Sequence record: PV287714.1
DNA length: 64,000 nt
Reading direction: 5' to 3' (one strand)
Source: Escherichia phage HMD-9
This document shows positions 2,274 to 64,000 of the stretch, in pieces. The position numbers were made by a program, and so were the translations under genes. The notes beneath the pieces are model-generated. The model was not told where the DNA came from and did not search any database. It saw only the letters and a list, made by a program, of their open reading frames with translations. How positions within the stretch are numbered: the first letter of the stretch is position 1; every line of letters starts with the position of its first letter.

Positions 2274-4093
2274 TACTGGCTCATCCATTCTTTACGAAGG
2301 TCAGCATTATCTCCCATGAGCATTTCAAAAAGCTCTTTCCAATTCTCAGGAAGTTTAACAACATCATATACTGGATTTTGAATCATCTCACGATATTCAG
2401 ATTTTTCCAAAGAGCCAAGTCCCTTAATATAACGGATGCTATGTTTAGGTAGAGCATCTTTAGCACTCTCATATTCAGCGACTGTATAAAACCATTCTTG
2501 TTTTTTACCGACCTGAGCGATGATTACAGGAGTTTTGACAAAGCGAATTCTTCCTTGTTCAAACAGTTCTGGCCAATTACTAAAAAATCCGAGCAAAGAA
2601 GGATAAATGCTTCCTAGACCATCATGGTCAGCATCGGTCATAATAGCAATATTATGATAATTCAAGTTTTCGGCTTTTTCACCAAGAACTAATCCAGTGA
2701 TTGCGCAAATATCAAACAGTTCTTTGTTTTTAAGCATATCAGCATATGACATACCCCAACTGTTGAGAACTTTACCACGCAATGGATAACCGCCATGAAG
2801 TTCTTTATCACGAACATCAATAAGATATCCAATAGCCGAATCACCCTCAGTCAAGAAAAGAGTAGTGTCAGCATCTTTACCACAAAGATTCGCTTTAATA
2901 TGTTTATGAACCTTAGCTTTAGAAACCTTTTTAGCTGCTTTAGTTTCTGCTGCTTTTTCTGCCGCCAATTTACGAGCCAAGGCAGCTTCAATAATTGGCA
3001 TTAAAATTGCTTCATTATTTAAAATAGCACGTGAAATCTTTTTAGCATCAAGCTGAATATGACTACGAATTTCACCAAATGGAGAAGTCAGACGCTCTTT
3101 AGTTTGAGAGTCAAATCGCATGTTTTTCATATCACGAACAAACATAACGATAGTCAAACATTCTTTAACACGTGCTTTAGTTACGTCAATTTTAAATTTA
3201 CGTTTGATTTGTGGAATAAGGTCTTCACAAATATCATCCATAACACAATCAATATGATGGCCACCATTCTTAGTATGAATGTTATTGACGTATGTTAATT
3301 GACGAAAACCATCCGGCGAACGACCAACCGCAATAGAACAGTTTTCTTGTTCTTGAACGATAGCATGCTCATCATATTGGCGTGCATATTTCTTAAAATT
3401 ACCCTGAACCTTTTTACCATTAAAGGTAAATTGAATATCAGGATAAACTACTGCAAGTGTCTGGAGACGATCCAGTGTAATGTCAAGATAAACTTGAGAC
3501 AGCTCATTAGTTTCAAATGACATAAAATCAGGAATGAAAGTAACGCGAGTTCCTTTCCATTTTCCAGGAATATCTTCCCACGATTTATTTTCCATGCCGT
3601 TTGAACAACGAACTACAATATTATTTTGACCGTCGCCAGTTTCACCGACAAACATCACAGAAAAAATGTTAGTTAAACTAGAGCCAACACCGTTCATACC
3701 GCCAGTGACGCGTTCTTTGTCATCACCGAAGTTACCACCTGCTTTTGGAATAGTCCAGGCAGCAACAGGACCAGGAATTTCTTCACCGGTAGGTGTTTTA
3801 ACCATCGCCTGTGGAATACCACGACCGTTATCTTCAACTGTTACTTGATTGTTTTTGATAGTAACATTAATTTTATTTGCGAATTTAAACTTAGTACGAA
3901 TACCTTCATCTACTGAGTTATCGATAATTTCATCAATAAGCTTAACAAGACCAGGTACATACTGAACACTTTCCCATTTACCAAACAGAAAGCGCTCATG
4001 CATTTCATTAGCAGAAGAACCAATGTACATGCCGCTACGCTTTTTGATATGTTCAATATCGCTCAGAATTTTAATTTCATTCTTAATCATCAC
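2273..4093 (-). CDS. 39: DNA topoisomerase II large subunit gp39, unsplit 606-aa form (GyrB-like ATPase plus the part that is gene 60 in T4)
   Basis: 606-aa track ORF; N-terminus MMIKNEIKILSDIEHIKKRSGMYIGS and EDNGRGIP GyrB motifs; continuous through the region split by gene 60 in T4. Confidence 0.9.
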   Translation of the reverse strand: MMIKNEIKILSDIEHIKKRSGMYIGSSANEMHERFLFGKWESVQYVPGLVKLIDEIIDNSVDEGIRTKFKFANKINVTIKNNQVTVEDNGRGIPQAMVKTPTGEEIPGPVAAWTIPKAGGNFGDDKERVTGGMNGVGSSLTNIFSVMFVGETGDGQNNIVVRCSNGMENKSWEDIPGKWKGTRVTFIPDFMSFETNELSQVYLDITLDRLQTLAVVYPDIQFTFNGKKVQGNFKKYARQYDEHAIVQEQENCSIAVGRSPDGFRQLTYVNNIHTKNGGHHIDCVMDDICEDLIPQIKRKFKIDVTKARVKECLTIVMFVRDMKNMRFDSQTKERLTSPFGEIRSHIQLDAKKISRAILNNEAILMPIIEAALARKLAAEKAAETKAAKKVSKAKVHKHIKANLCGKDADTTLFLTEGDSAIGYLIDVRDKELHGGYPLRGKVLNSWGMSYADMLKNKELFDICAITGLVLGEKAENLNYHNIAIMTDADHDGLGSIYPSLLGFFSNWPELFEQGRIRFVKTPVIIAQVGKKQEWFYTVAEYESAKDALPKHSIRYIKGLGSLEKSEYREMIQNPVYDVVKLPENWKELFEMLMGDNADLRKEWMSQ

Positions 4094-4142
4094 TTATCCT
4101 CGTTTGGTTTCGGGAATATTATACTCCAATAATCATAAAGCT

Positions 4143-4160
4143 AAAGGCCCGAAGGCCTTT
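4143..4160 (-). terminator. GC stem-loop with UUCG tetraloop (intercistronic hairpin/terminator) followed by TTGGAGTATAAT and gene 39 RBS
   Basis: aaaggcc-cgaa-ggccttt on plus strand, flanked by T run; same hairpin class recurs at least 8 times in window. Confidence 0.5.
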
Positions 4161-4432
4161 TATTTAAAACGAATAGTTGAATCCTTAAAGAACAGCCCAG
4201 AACATACAGTTCCTTCTACTTTCTGCCCGGTAGGTCCAATAGCACGAAATCCAGTGTGTTGGAAATCATTTTCAGAGCAACCGAACCAATTATATCCAGT
4301 GATTTCAATATTAGTAAAACCACTTGAAGACAAAACTTTGGTTGCATTATCAGCATCAGTACATCCTATTAAAGACACTGCTAATACTAATGCTGCGATA
4401 GAACGATTAACATATTTCATAATTTCACTCAA
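4160..4432 (-). CDS. predicted lipoprotein
   Basis: 90-aa track ORF; signal peptide and lipobox (LVLAVSLIGC). Confidence 0.6.
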   Translation of the reverse strand: MSEIMKYVNRSIAALVLAVSLIGCTDADNATKVLSSSGFTNIEITGYNWFGCSENDFQHTGFRAIGPTGQKVEGTVCSGLFFKDSTIRFK

Positions 4433-4802
4433 ATTTAATGGCTTGAAGAAGACTAATAACTCTCAAGCGGCTTCTTTCATCTTTAACTGTAAAGGAAAGA
4501 GGGTCACCAGATTTCATAGTGATAGTGCATCCAAAATCAAAATTTTCGGGAACTTCTTCGAAGAAGTCAAATTCTTCAGCATAAATTAGAACATTACTCT
4601 GCATACTGTGAAGAATTTTTCCGTCATTTCCAGATGCTGTACTAATCATCGTAACATTATGGCCTTTCATATCTTCAACGATAAATTCGCTTGTAGATAT
4701 TACAGCATTAATAGAACCATTCCTATAAATAGCAGACATTAGATATTTCTTTTCTTCGCCTTCGCGAATACGATATTTCTTACCGATTTTAAACATAATC
4801 AC
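4425..4802 (-). CDS. hypothetical early protein
   Basis: 125-aa track ORF in operon context; no recognisable motif. Confidence 0.5.
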   Translation of the reverse strand: MIMFKIGKKYRIREGEEKKYLMSAIYRNGSINAVISTSEFIVEDMKGHNVTMISTASGNDGKILHSMQSNVLIYAEEFDFFEEVPENFDFGCTITMKSGDPLSFTVKDERSRLRVISLLQAIKFE

Positions 4803-16714: not shown

Positions 16715-16879
16715 TTACTCTTCTTTTTCTTTAGATTCCTCTTTTTTCTTTTTAGGAATCTGTTCAGGACCTTTATTTACTACAGCGCCTGACGTTGTTC
16801 CAGTAGAGATATTTTCAGGATTACCGCCTGAATCTCCAGCGACCATATCTTCTTTAATAAATTCTTTATATGTTTTCAT
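16715..16879 (-). CDS. small protein with capsid-targeting-sequence-like N-terminus, 54 aa
   Basis: ORF below track cutoff: MKTYKEFIKEDMVAG...; GAGG SD; stop 2 nt before gene 61 ATG. Confidence 0.45.
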   Translation of the reverse strand: MKTYKEFIKEDMVAGDSGGNPENISTGTTSGAVVNKGPEQIPKKKKEESKEKEE

Positions 16880-60320: not shown

Positions 60321-60534
60321 ATTTTACTTTCTCACCAGTACCCAAATCATATTCAACTAAACGAATAGGTTCATGAATGCCATATCCCTGAACAGAAATT
60401 TCTGTCGTAGGATAAATTCCACTAATATCACCCATATTCCACGCTTCATTAAATTGTTGTTCGCCTGAATTACTAAACCATTCGGCGAAAGCATTTAGCA
60501 CATCTTCAGAACCTTCAATAATTATCTTTGCCAT
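60313..60534 (-). CDS. hypothetical small protein
   Basis: 73-aa track ORF. Confidence 0.45.
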   Translation of the reverse strand: MAKIIIEGSEDVLNAFAEWFSNSGEQQFNEAWNMGDISGIYPTTEISVQGYGIHEPIRLVEYDLGTGEKVKYD

Positions 60535-60908
60535 TACAGACTCTCAGTAAAGGTACGAGCGATAACGTCGCGCTGCTGTTCCGGAGTCAGAGAGTTAAAG
60601 CGAACTGCATAACCGGATACACGGATGGTCAGCTGCGGATATTTTTCCGGATGCTTAACTGCATCCTCCAGAGTTTCACGACGCAGAACGTTTACGTTCA
60701 GGTGTTGACCACCTTCAATTTTAACTGTAGGTTGTGTTTCAATTTCAATTTCACGGGCATGTAAACCGTAGAAAATTTCTGGGTCTACAAAAGAGTCCTC
60801 TTTAAAGGTTTTAGAGACAATAATTCGTGCTTGAATACCGTCTTCAAAATAAATAGTACCTTTATGTGTGCCTTCAAGAATTTGATATGCTTTCATATAA
60901 CCTCTCAA
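60534..60908 (-). CDS. grcA: autonomous glycyl radical cofactor (GrcA/YfiD-like)
   Basis: 124-aa track ORF; C-terminal 60 aa match E. coli GrcA incl. glycyl radical motif RVSGYAV; 3' half GC-rich with host-like codons. Confidence 0.8.
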
Positions 60909-61234: not shown

Positions 61235-61806
61235 TGCATTCCGATTACGAAAAACTGCGGACGAGTAATACCACCAATGCAACAATTACTATTGCAACAG
61301 TGGTGCACAGTTTCAATATGAATATCGTAAATTTTATCCATATCAGGAGATTTAACAGGCTCATCAATTATATACAAAATCCGCGAAAGCGATAAACCTC
61401 TGAACTTGCTACCTCTATTACCAACAAAACTACGGACAGAATCAGTAAATAAACGGAATCGAATATCATCGCCAGAATAACGAGAAAATTCTTTTTTAAT
61501 GTGGCCCGCAGAAATTTTAGCATAAGATGAAGTATTAGAAAGAACAATAACCGTTCCGCCGTCATACAACCAATTAACAGCAAAATTAGTTACTGCAGTC
61601 GATTTACCTGATTGTCTGCCACCATCTAAACGAAGTGTACAGTACTGCTTGAGTACGTCTTCAAATGGTGGGGCATAACCGTTCTTACAAATTTCTTCTA
61701 CTCTAGCATCAGAATGGTGTGTAAAAGCATTCATCAGGGATAGATAAGGTCCAGTTAAAAATGTTCTCATATTATTTCTCTTAAGGTTTGGACCATTCCG
61801 TGGCAC
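61231..61806 (-). CDS. small P-loop NTPase-like protein
   Basis: 191-aa track ORF (GTG start in track); Walker A-like GGRQSGKST and Walker B-like LYIIDE. Confidence 0.45.
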   Translation of the reverse strand: MPRNGPNLKRNNMRTFLTGPYLSLMNAFTHHSDARVEEICKNGYAPPFEDVLKQYCTLRLDGGRQSGKSTAVTNFAVNWLYDGGTVIVLSNTSSYAKISAGHIKKEFSRYSGDDIRFRLFTDSVRSFVGNRGSKFRGLSLSRILYIIDEPVKSPDMDKIYDIHIETVHHCCNSNCCIGGITRPQFFVIGMQ

Positions 61807-61948
61807 ATGAATTGTCCATTTCTGTATTTACCCATTACCGCACTTGGGCTCGACCTTATTACAGGTTGGCGGGAATCCCTCATAGAATCATGAGGTCCAG
61901 GTTGTTCCCATGTTATTTGAATGTAAATAGGCCTAAATATAGGCCTTA

Positions 61949-62545
61949 TTAATTACCACGGGCTGCATTAGCAACGGCATAAGCGTACTGAACATTAGCG
62001 TCTTTAAACATACCTTTAGAGGTGTCTATTTCTGCCTTAAAGCCGCCTTTAGCCATAACATCGGCAAATTCTTTACGGAAAGCCATTGCATCAAGACCTT
62101 TCCATGATGATTTGTGCTTGGCGAATTCAAGACCAGCGTAGTTGACAGCCTTAGCTAATTTATTATCAATAACCCATTTACCAGCTTTAGGCACAAACAC
62201 AGGACCTTTCTGTTTAGAGAACAGTTTTAAATTCCAGCGACGAAGGTCAAAGTCAGCTTTAACAAAAGCTGCGTCCAAGTTACTAGCAACAACATCTTCA
62301 ATATGAGCAAATTTAAGTCCGTCAACTTCAATATTTAGGTCGGTACGCCAGCGAAGTCCTTTCCAGGCGAAAGCTTTAAAGTCGGAAGCCTTTGTAGCTA
62401 AATACCGTTCAATAGGAGCTGTTTTAGCGTCAAAACCATTTCCTGGGTTGTCAACGCCGTTTCCTCGGTAAGTCCACTCATCTTTATTAATGCCTTGGAC
62501 CTTTCCTACAGAAGCTTCGGCGATAAATTCTTTATATGTTTTCAT
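61949..62545 (-). CDS. internal protein (IPIII-like) with capsid targeting sequence
   Basis: 198-aa track ORF; N-terminal MKTYKEFIAE CTS; basic, Lys/Ala-rich body. Confidence 0.7.
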   Translation of the reverse strand: MKTYKEFIAEASVGKVQGINKDEWTYRGNGVDNPGNGFDAKTAPIERYLATKASDFKAFAWKGLRWRTDLNIEVDGLKFAHIEDVVASNLDAAFVKADFDLRRWNLKLFSKQKGPVFVPKAGKWVIDNKLAKAVNYAGLEFAKHKSSWKGLDAMAFRKEFADVMAKGGFKAEIDTSKGMFKDANVQYAYAVANAARGN

Positions 62546-62598
62546 ACGGATTCCTTAAAGGTAAATATTTTAATTGGTATGTTCAAGTAACTGTAGAT

Positions 62599-62627
62599 AT
62601 ACTATCACAATTCTAGGAGATGTAAAC
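62599..62627 (-). promoter_or_regulatory. T4-type early promoter for IPIII-like gene
   Basis: Reverse complement GTTTACatctcctagaattgtgaTAGTAT. Confidence 0.5.
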
Positions 62628-63026
62628 TTATTTGTAGGTTTTCATCCAATTCTTGAACAAAGCCACGACGTCTTTCTCTTTAACGTTCAGTTTAACGTCC
62701 AACATTTTACCACCAGCTGCTCTCGTTTGGCGAATCTTAGCAGTACCGGTTTCGCCATTCCACTCAACATAATATTGTCCAGCGTTCATTGCAATACCAT
62801 CGCCGTAGTCTTCATTTTTAGAAGTGGTGAAGGCCAGCTTCATAGTCTTAGAGACACGAGCCTGCATGCCTGTCTGAAGGGCATTACGAACGCGAATAAC
62901 CTGAGGAGTGGCCTGGGTCAGGTTCTCATTCAGTTCTTCAGTGAACTCTTCAGATTCAAACATAGCCAAAAGTTCTTTAGATGCAGGAATTACATTCTCT
63001 GCGATAAATTCTTGATACGTTTTCAT
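62628..63026 (-). CDS. internal-protein-like protein with capsid targeting sequence
   Basis: 132-aa track ORF; N-terminal MKTYQEFIAE CTS. Confidence 0.6.
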   Translation of the reverse strand: MKTYQEFIAENVIPASKELLAMFESEEFTEELNENLTQATPQVIRVRNALQTGMQARVSKTMKLAFTTSKNEDYGDGIAMNAGQYYVEWNGETGTAKIRQTRAAGGKMLDVKLNVKEKDVVALFKNWMKTYK

Positions 63027-63056
63027 TTTTGTTTCCTTGTTTGTTTTGATAGAGTA

Positions 63057-63086
63057 ATTATACCATAATAATACTTAAGCGTAAAC
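63057..63086 (-). promoter_or_regulatory. T4-type early promoter
   Basis: Reverse complement GTTTACgcttaagtattattatggTATAAT. Confidence 0.55.
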
Positions 63087-63089
63087 TGT

Positions 63090-63350
63090 TTAAGCTTTAC
63101 CGCCAGAAATAATTCCGAAGTTGTTAAAATCATATCCAATATCGTCAACATCTACTTTAGGGCTTGCTACAACATAAGCAATTTCACTACGTTTTGCATA
63201 GGTGTTTATTTCTCTACCATCGCCGCCTAGGAAAGAATACCCATTACGTTTTAATGAGCCAAAGTCTTCCGCATCACCAATGAAAGCTTTAACTTTAAAT
63301 TTAGGACCTTTGGCATCTGCTTCAGCGATAAATTCTTGATACATTTTCAT
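63090..63350 (-). CDS. internal-protein-like protein with capsid targeting sequence
   Basis: 86-aa track ORF; N-terminal MKMYQEFIAE CTS. Confidence 0.6.
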   Translation of the reverse strand: MKMYQEFIAEADAKGPKFKVKAFIGDAEDFGSLKRNGYSFLGGDGREINTYAKRSEIAYVVASPKVDVDDIGYDFNNFGIISGGKA

Positions 63351-63356
63351 TTTTCC

Positions 63357-63770
63357 TTAGTAAATTGATTTACCATAGTATTTGTACCAAGTAGGACGTT
63401 GAGCAATTTTTTCGTCTAAGCGTGCTTGACTTATCGCAATGGACGCTTCGGACGGGACATAATTATTACGAAATTCGGCAGGGATGTCAGAAATATCCTG
63501 AACAGTCGTGTCCTTGATTTTGAAACCACGTTTCAAGCATTCAGCGATTAGCTCGATTTGACGTAAACGTAAAAATTCGAGTTTGTCGTAAAAGAATGTT
63601 ACGTGTCCTGTGCCTAAGATAAATGTTGGAGAGATTTTAAAATCCTTTACGCGTTTACCGTTTTTAACATGTTTACGGACTGCACCAAATACGCGTGGTA
63701 ATTCACGATACTCAGCCATAAGATGTTGGTCGGTCAGTTCAGAAACAAGTGTTAAATTGATACGAGTCAT
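63357..63770 (-). CDS. denV: endonuclease V (pyrimidine dimer DNA glycosylase) DenV
   Basis: Track ORF trimmed to [12 protein letters not shown]; about 90 percent identical to T4 endo V from memory. Confidence 0.93.
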
Positions 63771-63780
63771 AATTTCCTCC

Positions 63781-63827
63781 AAGTAGTTGATGAATGTATA
63801 GTATCAAAACCCTTGGAGGAAGTAAAC
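63781..63827 (-). promoter_or_regulatory. early promoter with PeSL-like leader upstream of denV
   Basis: Reverse complement GTTTACttcctccaagggttttgaTACTAT followed by leader catcaactactt. Confidence 0.55.
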
Positions 63828-63828
63828 A

Positions 63829-64000
63829 CTATTTTTCTGAAGCGCCTGAAATATATTTTTCAAGACGTTGTTTCATCAGCGAGCCGTTCTTAGCGATTTC
63901 TTCCGGTTTATCACACATACGCAACAAGGCTTCAAGCTTAACGATATCGCTTGTACGTTCAAATTTGCGAGTATCTATCTTACTAGCAAGTTCAGAAATA
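63829..64000 (-). CDS. hypothetical protein, partial (C-terminal 57 codons; 5' end beyond window)
   Basis: Open minus-strand frame to window edge ending ...LMKQRLEKYISGASEK then TAG at 63829-63831. Confidence 0.4.
   Translation of the reverse strand, partial: ISELASKIDTRKFERTSDIVKLEALLRMCDKPEEIAKNGSLMKQRLEKYISGASEK

Follow-up and report, generated by a model that had tools for sequence, protein, structure and literature searches.

Bacteriophage T4 packages its internal proteins (IPs) by means of the leader MKTYQEFIAE, which also packages foreign proteins when fused to them; about 1000 copies enter each head and are cut once, right beside the leader (PMC8442874; PMC3012670). The T4 IPs are highly basic and their lysines contact the DNA phosphates (PMC8442874; PMC3012670). 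Each of Ip1, Ip2 and Ip3 is an inhibitor of a single specific type IV restriction enzyme of the GmrSD type, without cross-protection (PMC12373910), and variation at IP loci has been known since 1994 (PMC4122927 and PMC3012670, which both cite Repoila 1994; PMC12373910). Here we analyze a stretch of 64,000 nucleotides (nt) from Escherichia phage HMD-9 (sequence record PV287714.1; hereafter the window), in which three consecutive minus-strand genes beside denV start with a variant of the T4 leader. We consider it likely that these genes form a T4-like variable IP array between e and vs.8 whose products are packaged and injected: one is the orthologue of T4 ipIII, whereas the other two (named IP86 and IP132 after their length in amino acids, aa) would encode further inhibitors.

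Three leader-bearing genes beside denV

A preliminary description of this DNA had reported three minus-strand genes of 198, 132 and 86 aa with a capsid targeting sequence. Open reading frames (ORFs) of these lengths are indeed present directly downstream of denV, and their leaders, PHROG assignments and the ipIII orthology agree with genes of the internal protein type:

61949-62545, minus strand: 198-aa gene, ipIII orthologue, leader MKTYKEFIAE (ORF list)
62628-63026, minus strand: IP132, 132-aa internal-protein-type gene, leader MKTYQEFIAE (ORF list)
63090-63350, minus strand: IP86, 86-aa internal-protein-type gene, leader MKMYQEFIAE, with its start codon 6 nt past the stop of denV
63357-63770, minus strand: denV (endonuclease V, pyrimidine-dimer glycosylase; PF03013, E 2.8e-14; phrog_1183, E 2.7e-62)

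A census of all six frames over the entire window, using a strict leader pattern, yields these three ORFs only, and the clustering of leader genes is therefore not due to chance. All three have genuine homologues in profile and protein searches, although Pfam and NCBIfam contain no family for any of them and their exact sequences are absent from a collection of 15 billion proteins. The prohead protease gp21 has the consensus L/I-x-E and cleaves after the E; the I-A-E found at residues 8-10 of each of the three proteins is thus a predicted gp21 site at the end of the leader. The closest relative of the phage is Escherichia phage 236Ecol005PP, with 98.1% identity over the first 24 kilobases (kb) of the window, and because of this similarity we assign the backbone to Tequatrovirus.

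In BLASTP against T4 IPI, IPII and IPIII, a comparison suggested in the preliminary description, the 198-aa protein matches IPIII over its full length (89% identity, E 4e-130), whereas IP86 and IP132 share the leader alone. Together with its assignment to phrog_5341 (E 1.9e-114), this similarity identifies the 198-aa protein as an orthologue of T4 IPIII/Ip3; its mature form has an isoelectric point (pI) of 9.6. In E. coli ECOR17, a type IV restriction system made up of two genes, GmrS1/GmrSD2, has been reported to be specifically inhibited by T4 Ip3 (PMC12373910). T4 IPIII is needed to infect ECOR17, and leaderless IPIII works when expressed in the host cytoplasm (PMC9391042). By homology, the 198-aa protein most likely inhibits ECOR17-type GmrS1/GmrSD2 as T4 Ip3 does. 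It is the only one of the three that is an orthologue of T4 ipII or ipIII: against IPII the alignments cover residues 1-11 of IP86 and 1-17 of IP132 only, and neither protein has a significant BLASTP match to IPI.

IP86 belongs to phrog_2667, annotated as 'internal head protein' (match to residues 1-84, E 6.7e-21), a family that also holds a 99-aa IP of phage JS10. With tblastn its family is found in 217 phage records, mainly from T4-like phages of Escherichia, Shigella and Salmonella, and in about 200 records it is located beside denV. As a side observation, the homologue in 236Ecol005PP (3785-4060 of that locus) has a frameshifted C-terminus (...KVDVTILDMILTTSELF...), while the C-terminal end is intact in the window and in Mosigvirus F27 (...KVDVDDIGYDFNNFGIISGGKA).

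IP132 is assigned to phrog_15461 (function unknown; E 9.5e-90). Its family comprises 49 phage records, every one annotated as 'hypothetical protein', and is rare overall: a search among 5.8 billion proteins gave 17 clusters, and HMMER, run exhaustively over 1.84 billion representatives with the mature protein as query, gave four real relatives (a few weak matches, to repetitive proteins of great length, were dismissed as spurious). The listed carriers include Dhakavirus JS98, JS10 and AnYang, Mosigvirus F27, Klebsiella phages such as Marfa, Serratia phage 4S and Erwinia phage Cronus. Using genus labels, which were taken for a subset of the listed records, the family is mostly found in Dhakavirus, together with relatives infecting Klebsiella, Serratia and Erwinia. 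Although the family diverges to 47-56% identity, the residues of the leader do not vary, even in members of 54-56% identity, and L32, E34 and N35 are likewise invariant. These latter residues form a second protease-type site, in which L-N-E (residues 32-34) precedes N. According to our computations, a cut after E34 would leave a 98-residue protein with a pI of 9.9 plus an acidic peptide of 24 residues, against a pI of 8.8 after removal of the leader only. Given this motif, IP132 is probably cleaved twice, after E10 and after L32-N33-E34. We thus propose phrog_15461 as a leader-bearing IP candidate family with a probable second processing site, a recognition that is new here.

Several other leads for these two proteins gave no result or were rejected. 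Sequence and profile searches of the PDB with IP86 and IP132 returned no significant match; we regard the weak similarities to HhaI methylase (E 0.13) and flagellin (E 0.019) as fortuitous. Foldseek against the PDB, run with a poor model of IP132, returned nothing at E <= 0.001. A literature search on virion proteomics of IP132 carriers (JS98) yielded nothing relevant. A 164-aa ORF on the plus strand (62574-63068), antisense to IP132, is treated as spurious because the IP132 frame is conserved down to 47% identity.

Mosaic origin and variable gene order

Homology between the window and 236Ecol005PP runs from vs.8 to the start codon of ipIII (62545) and resumes at 62998; for about 200 other phages it likewise stops at 62997/62998. 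Both ends coincide with a direct repeat that encodes the leader:

62998-63026, minus strand: 29-nt stretch of IP132 that encodes the leader, repeated directly at 62517-62545 and site of the left crossover
62517-62545, minus strand: 29-nt stretch of ipIII that encodes the leader, the other copy of this repeat

The 29-nt leader-coding stretch of 236Ecol005PP matches both copies. The sequence upstream of IP132 in the window, including its promoter, is the sequence found upstream of ipIII in 236Ecol005PP, and the intergenic sequence and promoter upstream of ipIII in the window are those of Dhakavirus AnYang. Mismatch counts per 60 nt show the same change of partner: between about 62380 and 62640 there are 0-2 mismatches to AnYang (4-40 to 236Ecol005PP), while from 61900 to about 62200 the window is 236Ecol005PP-like. 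Based on these junction alignments and on the switch from AnYang-like to 236Ecol005PP-like mismatch counts, a segment of about 0.7 kb, comprising IP132 and the 5' half of ipIII, is Dhakavirus-like and is embedded in a Tequatrovirus backbone; its left crossover is in the 29-nt leader-coding repeat, which all IP genes have in common, and its right crossover is inside ipIII.

Upstream of denV the window contains a further gene of this type, which is truncated:

63829-64000, minus strand: 3' portion of a fourth gene of the internal protein type, truncated where the window ends (recognized from its translation and from the 93-aa protein of a relative)

Its translation (...ISELASKIDTRKFERTSDIVKLEALL...GASEK, then the stop) is identical to the C-terminus of a 93-aa protein of 236Ecol005PP (here IP93), which starts with MKTYSEFLSE and belongs to phrog_3499 ('internal head protein'). 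Full-length 93-aa homologues of the cut gene are present in 236Ecol005PP, F27 and phi25-307. The window genes lie between the e-side genes and vs.8, beside denV, a position that agrees with the variable IP locus of T4 and of eight other loci compared. The gene orders compared are:

T4: e-ipIII-ipII-denV-vs.8
Window: (IP93)-denV-IP86-IP132-ipIII-terminator-vs.8
236Ecol005PP: e-IP93-denV-IP86 (frameshifted)-ipIII-vs.8
F27: e-IP93-(denV remnant)-IP86-IP132-vs.8
phi25-307: e-IP93-denV-IP86-IP104-ipIII-ipII-IP125-vs.8
JS10: e-ipIII-IP132-denV-IP99-vs.8
AnYang: e-IP132-ipIII-ipII-denV-IP119-IP99-vs.8
Logan contigs: e-IP132-ipII-denV-87 aa-99 aa-vs.8
Serratia 4S and Erwinia Cronus: e-IP132-like-denV

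The arrangement differs in every phage examined, and all small locus genes that we translated from eight other phages or contigs carry a variant of the leader at their start. In the preliminary description ipII and ipIII were placed on the other side of denV in T4, which is correct, and the three genes of the window were suggested to be extra or relocated. IP132 is indeed extra when compared to 236Ecol005PP. Relocation holds relative to T4 only: the junction from ipIII to vs.8 is contiguous in 84 phage records, and denV is next to IP86 in about 200. The junction between IP86 and IP132 is rarer, being found elsewhere among the phage records in F27 only, and no record in the phage collection covers at least 80% of the 2-kb array region or contains the full array.

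Most of denV is deleted in F27 (3263-3437 of its locus), where 63465-63761 of the window has no counterpart; F27 keeps the 3' end of denV upstream of IP86, plus the denV promoter region and start codon.

Downstream of the array are homologues of T4 vs.8, vs.7 and vs.6 (GrcA). The latter, three genes downstream, encodes a small glycyl-radical protein of the GrcA type (60534-60896, minus strand; PF01228, E 2.2e-18). Between the terminator behind ipIII and the start of the vs.8-like gene, about 140 nt at 61771-61909 (minus strand) match the beginning of the T4 vs.8 coding sequence plus the short spacer before denV at ~90% identity, and are out of frame with the 179-aa vs.8-like ORF of the window (T4 vs.8 has 219 aa). 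From this sequence, the vs.8 of the window looks shortened at its 5' end or seems to use a different start. An Rfam search of 61500-64000 returned no match.

Loosening the leader pattern in the census adds one ORF, a gene 61.1-like sequence starting at 16879. This 54-aa ORF (16715-16879, minus strand; MKTYKEFIKEDMVAGDSGGNPENISTGTTSGAVVNKGPE...) is located just upstream of the primase gene 61 and corresponds to T4 gene 61.1 (phrog_1823; 1396 phage records). From its leader-like start through ~30 further residues it is similar to a segment of gp23 (45% identity with gp23 of Acinetobacter phage 133, residues 56-93, E 1e-11). We take this gp23 segment to span the maturation cleavage site of the major capsid protein.

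Expression and possible role of IP86 and IP132

The following transcription signals were found around the array:

63057-63085, minus strand: early-type promoter TTTACG-N17-TATAAT with upstream TG, ahead of IP132 (promoter scan)
62599-62626, minus strand: early-type promoter TTTACA-N16-TAGTAT with upstream TG, ahead of ipIII (promoter scan)
about 63798-63827, minus strand: promoter-like site GTTTAC-N17-TACTAT of the T4-early type, upstream of denV (read from the sequence)
61929-61946, minus strand: terminator-like hairpin AGGCCT...AGGCCT followed by a T-run, 3' of ipIII (terminator scan)

The stop codons of IP86 and IP132 abut the GTTTAC of the next promoter. Each of the three genes had been proposed to possess its own GTTTAC/TATAAT early promoter, which stands for IP132 and ipIII but not for IP86: as its start is only 6 nt past the denV stop, there is no room for a promoter. 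IP86 would therefore be co-transcribed with denV from the site near 63798-63827, which matches 8 of the 12 positions of the sigma-70 consensus and falls below the threshold of the scan. A CTGACA-N17-AATAAT sequence inside denV was considered as a promoter of IP86 and rejected as a chance match, since the count of the scan does not exceed that of shuffled sequences.

Taken together, the proposed mechanism is that of a packaged and injected array. The capsid targeting sequence of about 10 residues, MK(T/M)Y(Q/K)EFIAE, would load each product into the scaffolding core of the prohead, after which gp21 would cut off the leader behind I-A-E. In the case of IP132 the second cut would free the acidic propeptide and leave the basic 98-residue protein. 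The processed proteins would remain in the head with the DNA, be co-injected and act before any phage gene is expressed. By analogy with the T4 proteins, IP86 and IP132 would then most likely serve as injected inhibitors of other first-response defences directed against glucosyl-hydroxymethylcytosine DNA.

A number of points weigh against this proposal. Loading into the prohead requires late synthesis, and no late promoter (TATAAATA) was found on the minus strand of 61900-63900. Both T4 and 236Ecol005PP have two late promoters just upstream of e, a gene that is beyond the window end here; late synthesis of the array, which we presume, would depend on read-through from upstream of the window. 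Mature IP86 is near neutral (pI 6.4), unlike the basic IPs. The AlphaFold2 models, built from shallow alignments, are of low confidence and give no functional clue (predicted local distance difference test score, pLDDT, of 49.1 for IP86 and 53.6 for IP132; below 50 for residues 1-37 of the latter). Presence in the virion and injection of IP86 and IP132 are predicted by analogy with the T4 proteins. Finally, ip4-10 of T4-like phages, a set that may or may not include IP86 or IP132, did not reproducibly inhibit any of five additional active GmrSD variants (Silas et al., PMC12373910), and a GmrSD target for the two proteins is hence not a given.

It might be argued that IP86 and IP132, once packaged, only fill the head or balance charge as DNA-associated proteins and have no specific host target. 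The basic nature of mature IPIII and IP132 (the latter also without the second cut) fits this idea, as do the charge, copy number and lysine-phosphate contacts of the T4 IPs. The near-neutral mature IP86 does not, each of the three T4 IPs has proved to be a specific inhibitor of restriction, and the extreme turnover of cassettes at the locus is more readily explained by an arms race than by a generic structural function; we therefore regard a filler function as unlikely. It is very unlikely that the two are mainly early cytoplasmic proteins in which the leader is kept chiefly as a 29-nt recombination linker. Such a role would explain the early-type promoters ahead of IP132 and ipIII, the lack of a late promoter within the array and the crossovers that map exactly onto the leader-coding block, and it is in line with the activity of leaderless IPIII expressed in the host. 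However, relatives with only ~50% identity still keep the leader as a peptide, with synonymous and conservative changes among them (MKSYNQFLDE, MKTYKEFLAE), which argues for selection on the peptide, and in T4 the leader alone suffices to package foreign proteins.

A joint action of IP86 and IP132, as one two-part injected effector, is suggested by their adjacency in the window and in F27 and by a protein of a T4-like contig in which the two types are fused. This continuous ORF of 194 aa (4001-4585 of a contig of Logan SRR14654591) is located between e and denV. Its residues 1-87 are phrog_2667-like (E 1.4e-6; BLASTP to IP86, E 3e-9) and its residues 90-192 phrog_15461-like (E 7e-25; 47% identity to IP132), whereas the joint contains no second leader but a protease-type motif, E-L-T-E before S. 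Nonetheless, it concerns a single fusion in one assembled contig, which a deletion between neighbouring cassettes explains equally well. Most carriers of IP132 (such as JS10, AnYang, 4S, Cronus and the Logan contigs) are without an adjacent IP86-type gene, and about 200 phages have IP86 but not IP132, so we find a two-part effector distinctly improbable. As a long shot of this kind, one could imagine that both proteins are halves of one injected counter-defence module, made in some phages as a single leader-bearing polyprotein that the prohead protease would cut in the capsid (the 194-aa fusion) and in the phage of the window as two proteins targeted separately. The acidic propeptide of IP132 would mask the basic effector up to maturation, and the two would jointly disarm a multi-component defence that has so far not been connected with IPs. 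An array of separately packaged and injected proteins, with IP86 and IP132 as additional inhibitors, is the explanation that we favour.

Significance and comparison with known systems

The novelty of the locus is modest: besides the recognition of phrog_15461 as an IP candidate family, its combination of cassettes is absent from the public records searched, and it contains an inter-genus patch with crossovers that can be mapped. That variable IP cassettes share the leader alone is well established, and the current picture of these loci is unchanged. For the majority of the remaining leader-bearing proteins in T4-like phages no target is known, and the window adds two candidates, IP86 and IP132. 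It also offers a clean example of the transfer of cassettes between phage genera through a crossover in a 29-nt leader-coding block. Possible uses are the engineering of the host range of therapeutic T4-like phages and the discovery of new defence systems through the targets of IPs.

For T4-like phages, modular shuffling by means of promoter-early stem-loops (PeSLs) has been proposed (Arbiol 2010; Comeau 2014). Similar to that model, the cassettes of the window carry T4-early-type promoters (TTTACW-N17-TAYWAT for PeSLs, in the PST/T4 pair) with indels adjacent to them. In contrast, the two internal promoters are not preceded by a stem-loop: the stop codons directly border GTTTAC, and the only hairpin is the one after ipIII. 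The mapped crossover is in the leader-coding block rather than in a promoter element. PeSL stem-loops were also considered as crossover sites, but inspection of the sequence and the terminator scan revealed none in the intergenic spacers of the array.

With T4 IPIII, the 198-aa protein shares the leader, the I-A-E cleavage motif and phrog_5341. It differs by an insertion of 6 residues (28-33) and 15 substitutions. Its gene is located downstream of denV, beside vs.8, whereas T4 ipIII is found between e and ipII, and the 5' half of the gene is Dhakavirus-like. The comparison of IP86 and IP132 with T4 IPI* and IPII is looser. They follow the same leader logic, are small and of the non-essential type and occupy the same kind of variable locus, and the working principle is likely common (packaged, processed, injected and active from time zero). 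Beyond the leader there is no sequence similarity, and the PHROGs differ: 4363 for IPI and 7857 (PF26874) for IPII, against 2667 for IP86 and 15461 for IP132.

The closest parallel at the level of the locus is with the polymorphic IP loci of the T-even phages (Repoila et al. 1994), which encode Ip4 and above. These are described for 'the T4 IP locus', and the 1994 description is said to concern the ipI locus, whereas the array of the window is at the e/denV/vs.8 locus. The organization is the same: unrelated small ORFs that share the leader alone are swapped among phages, both in the T-even loci and in the window and the eight other loci compared here.

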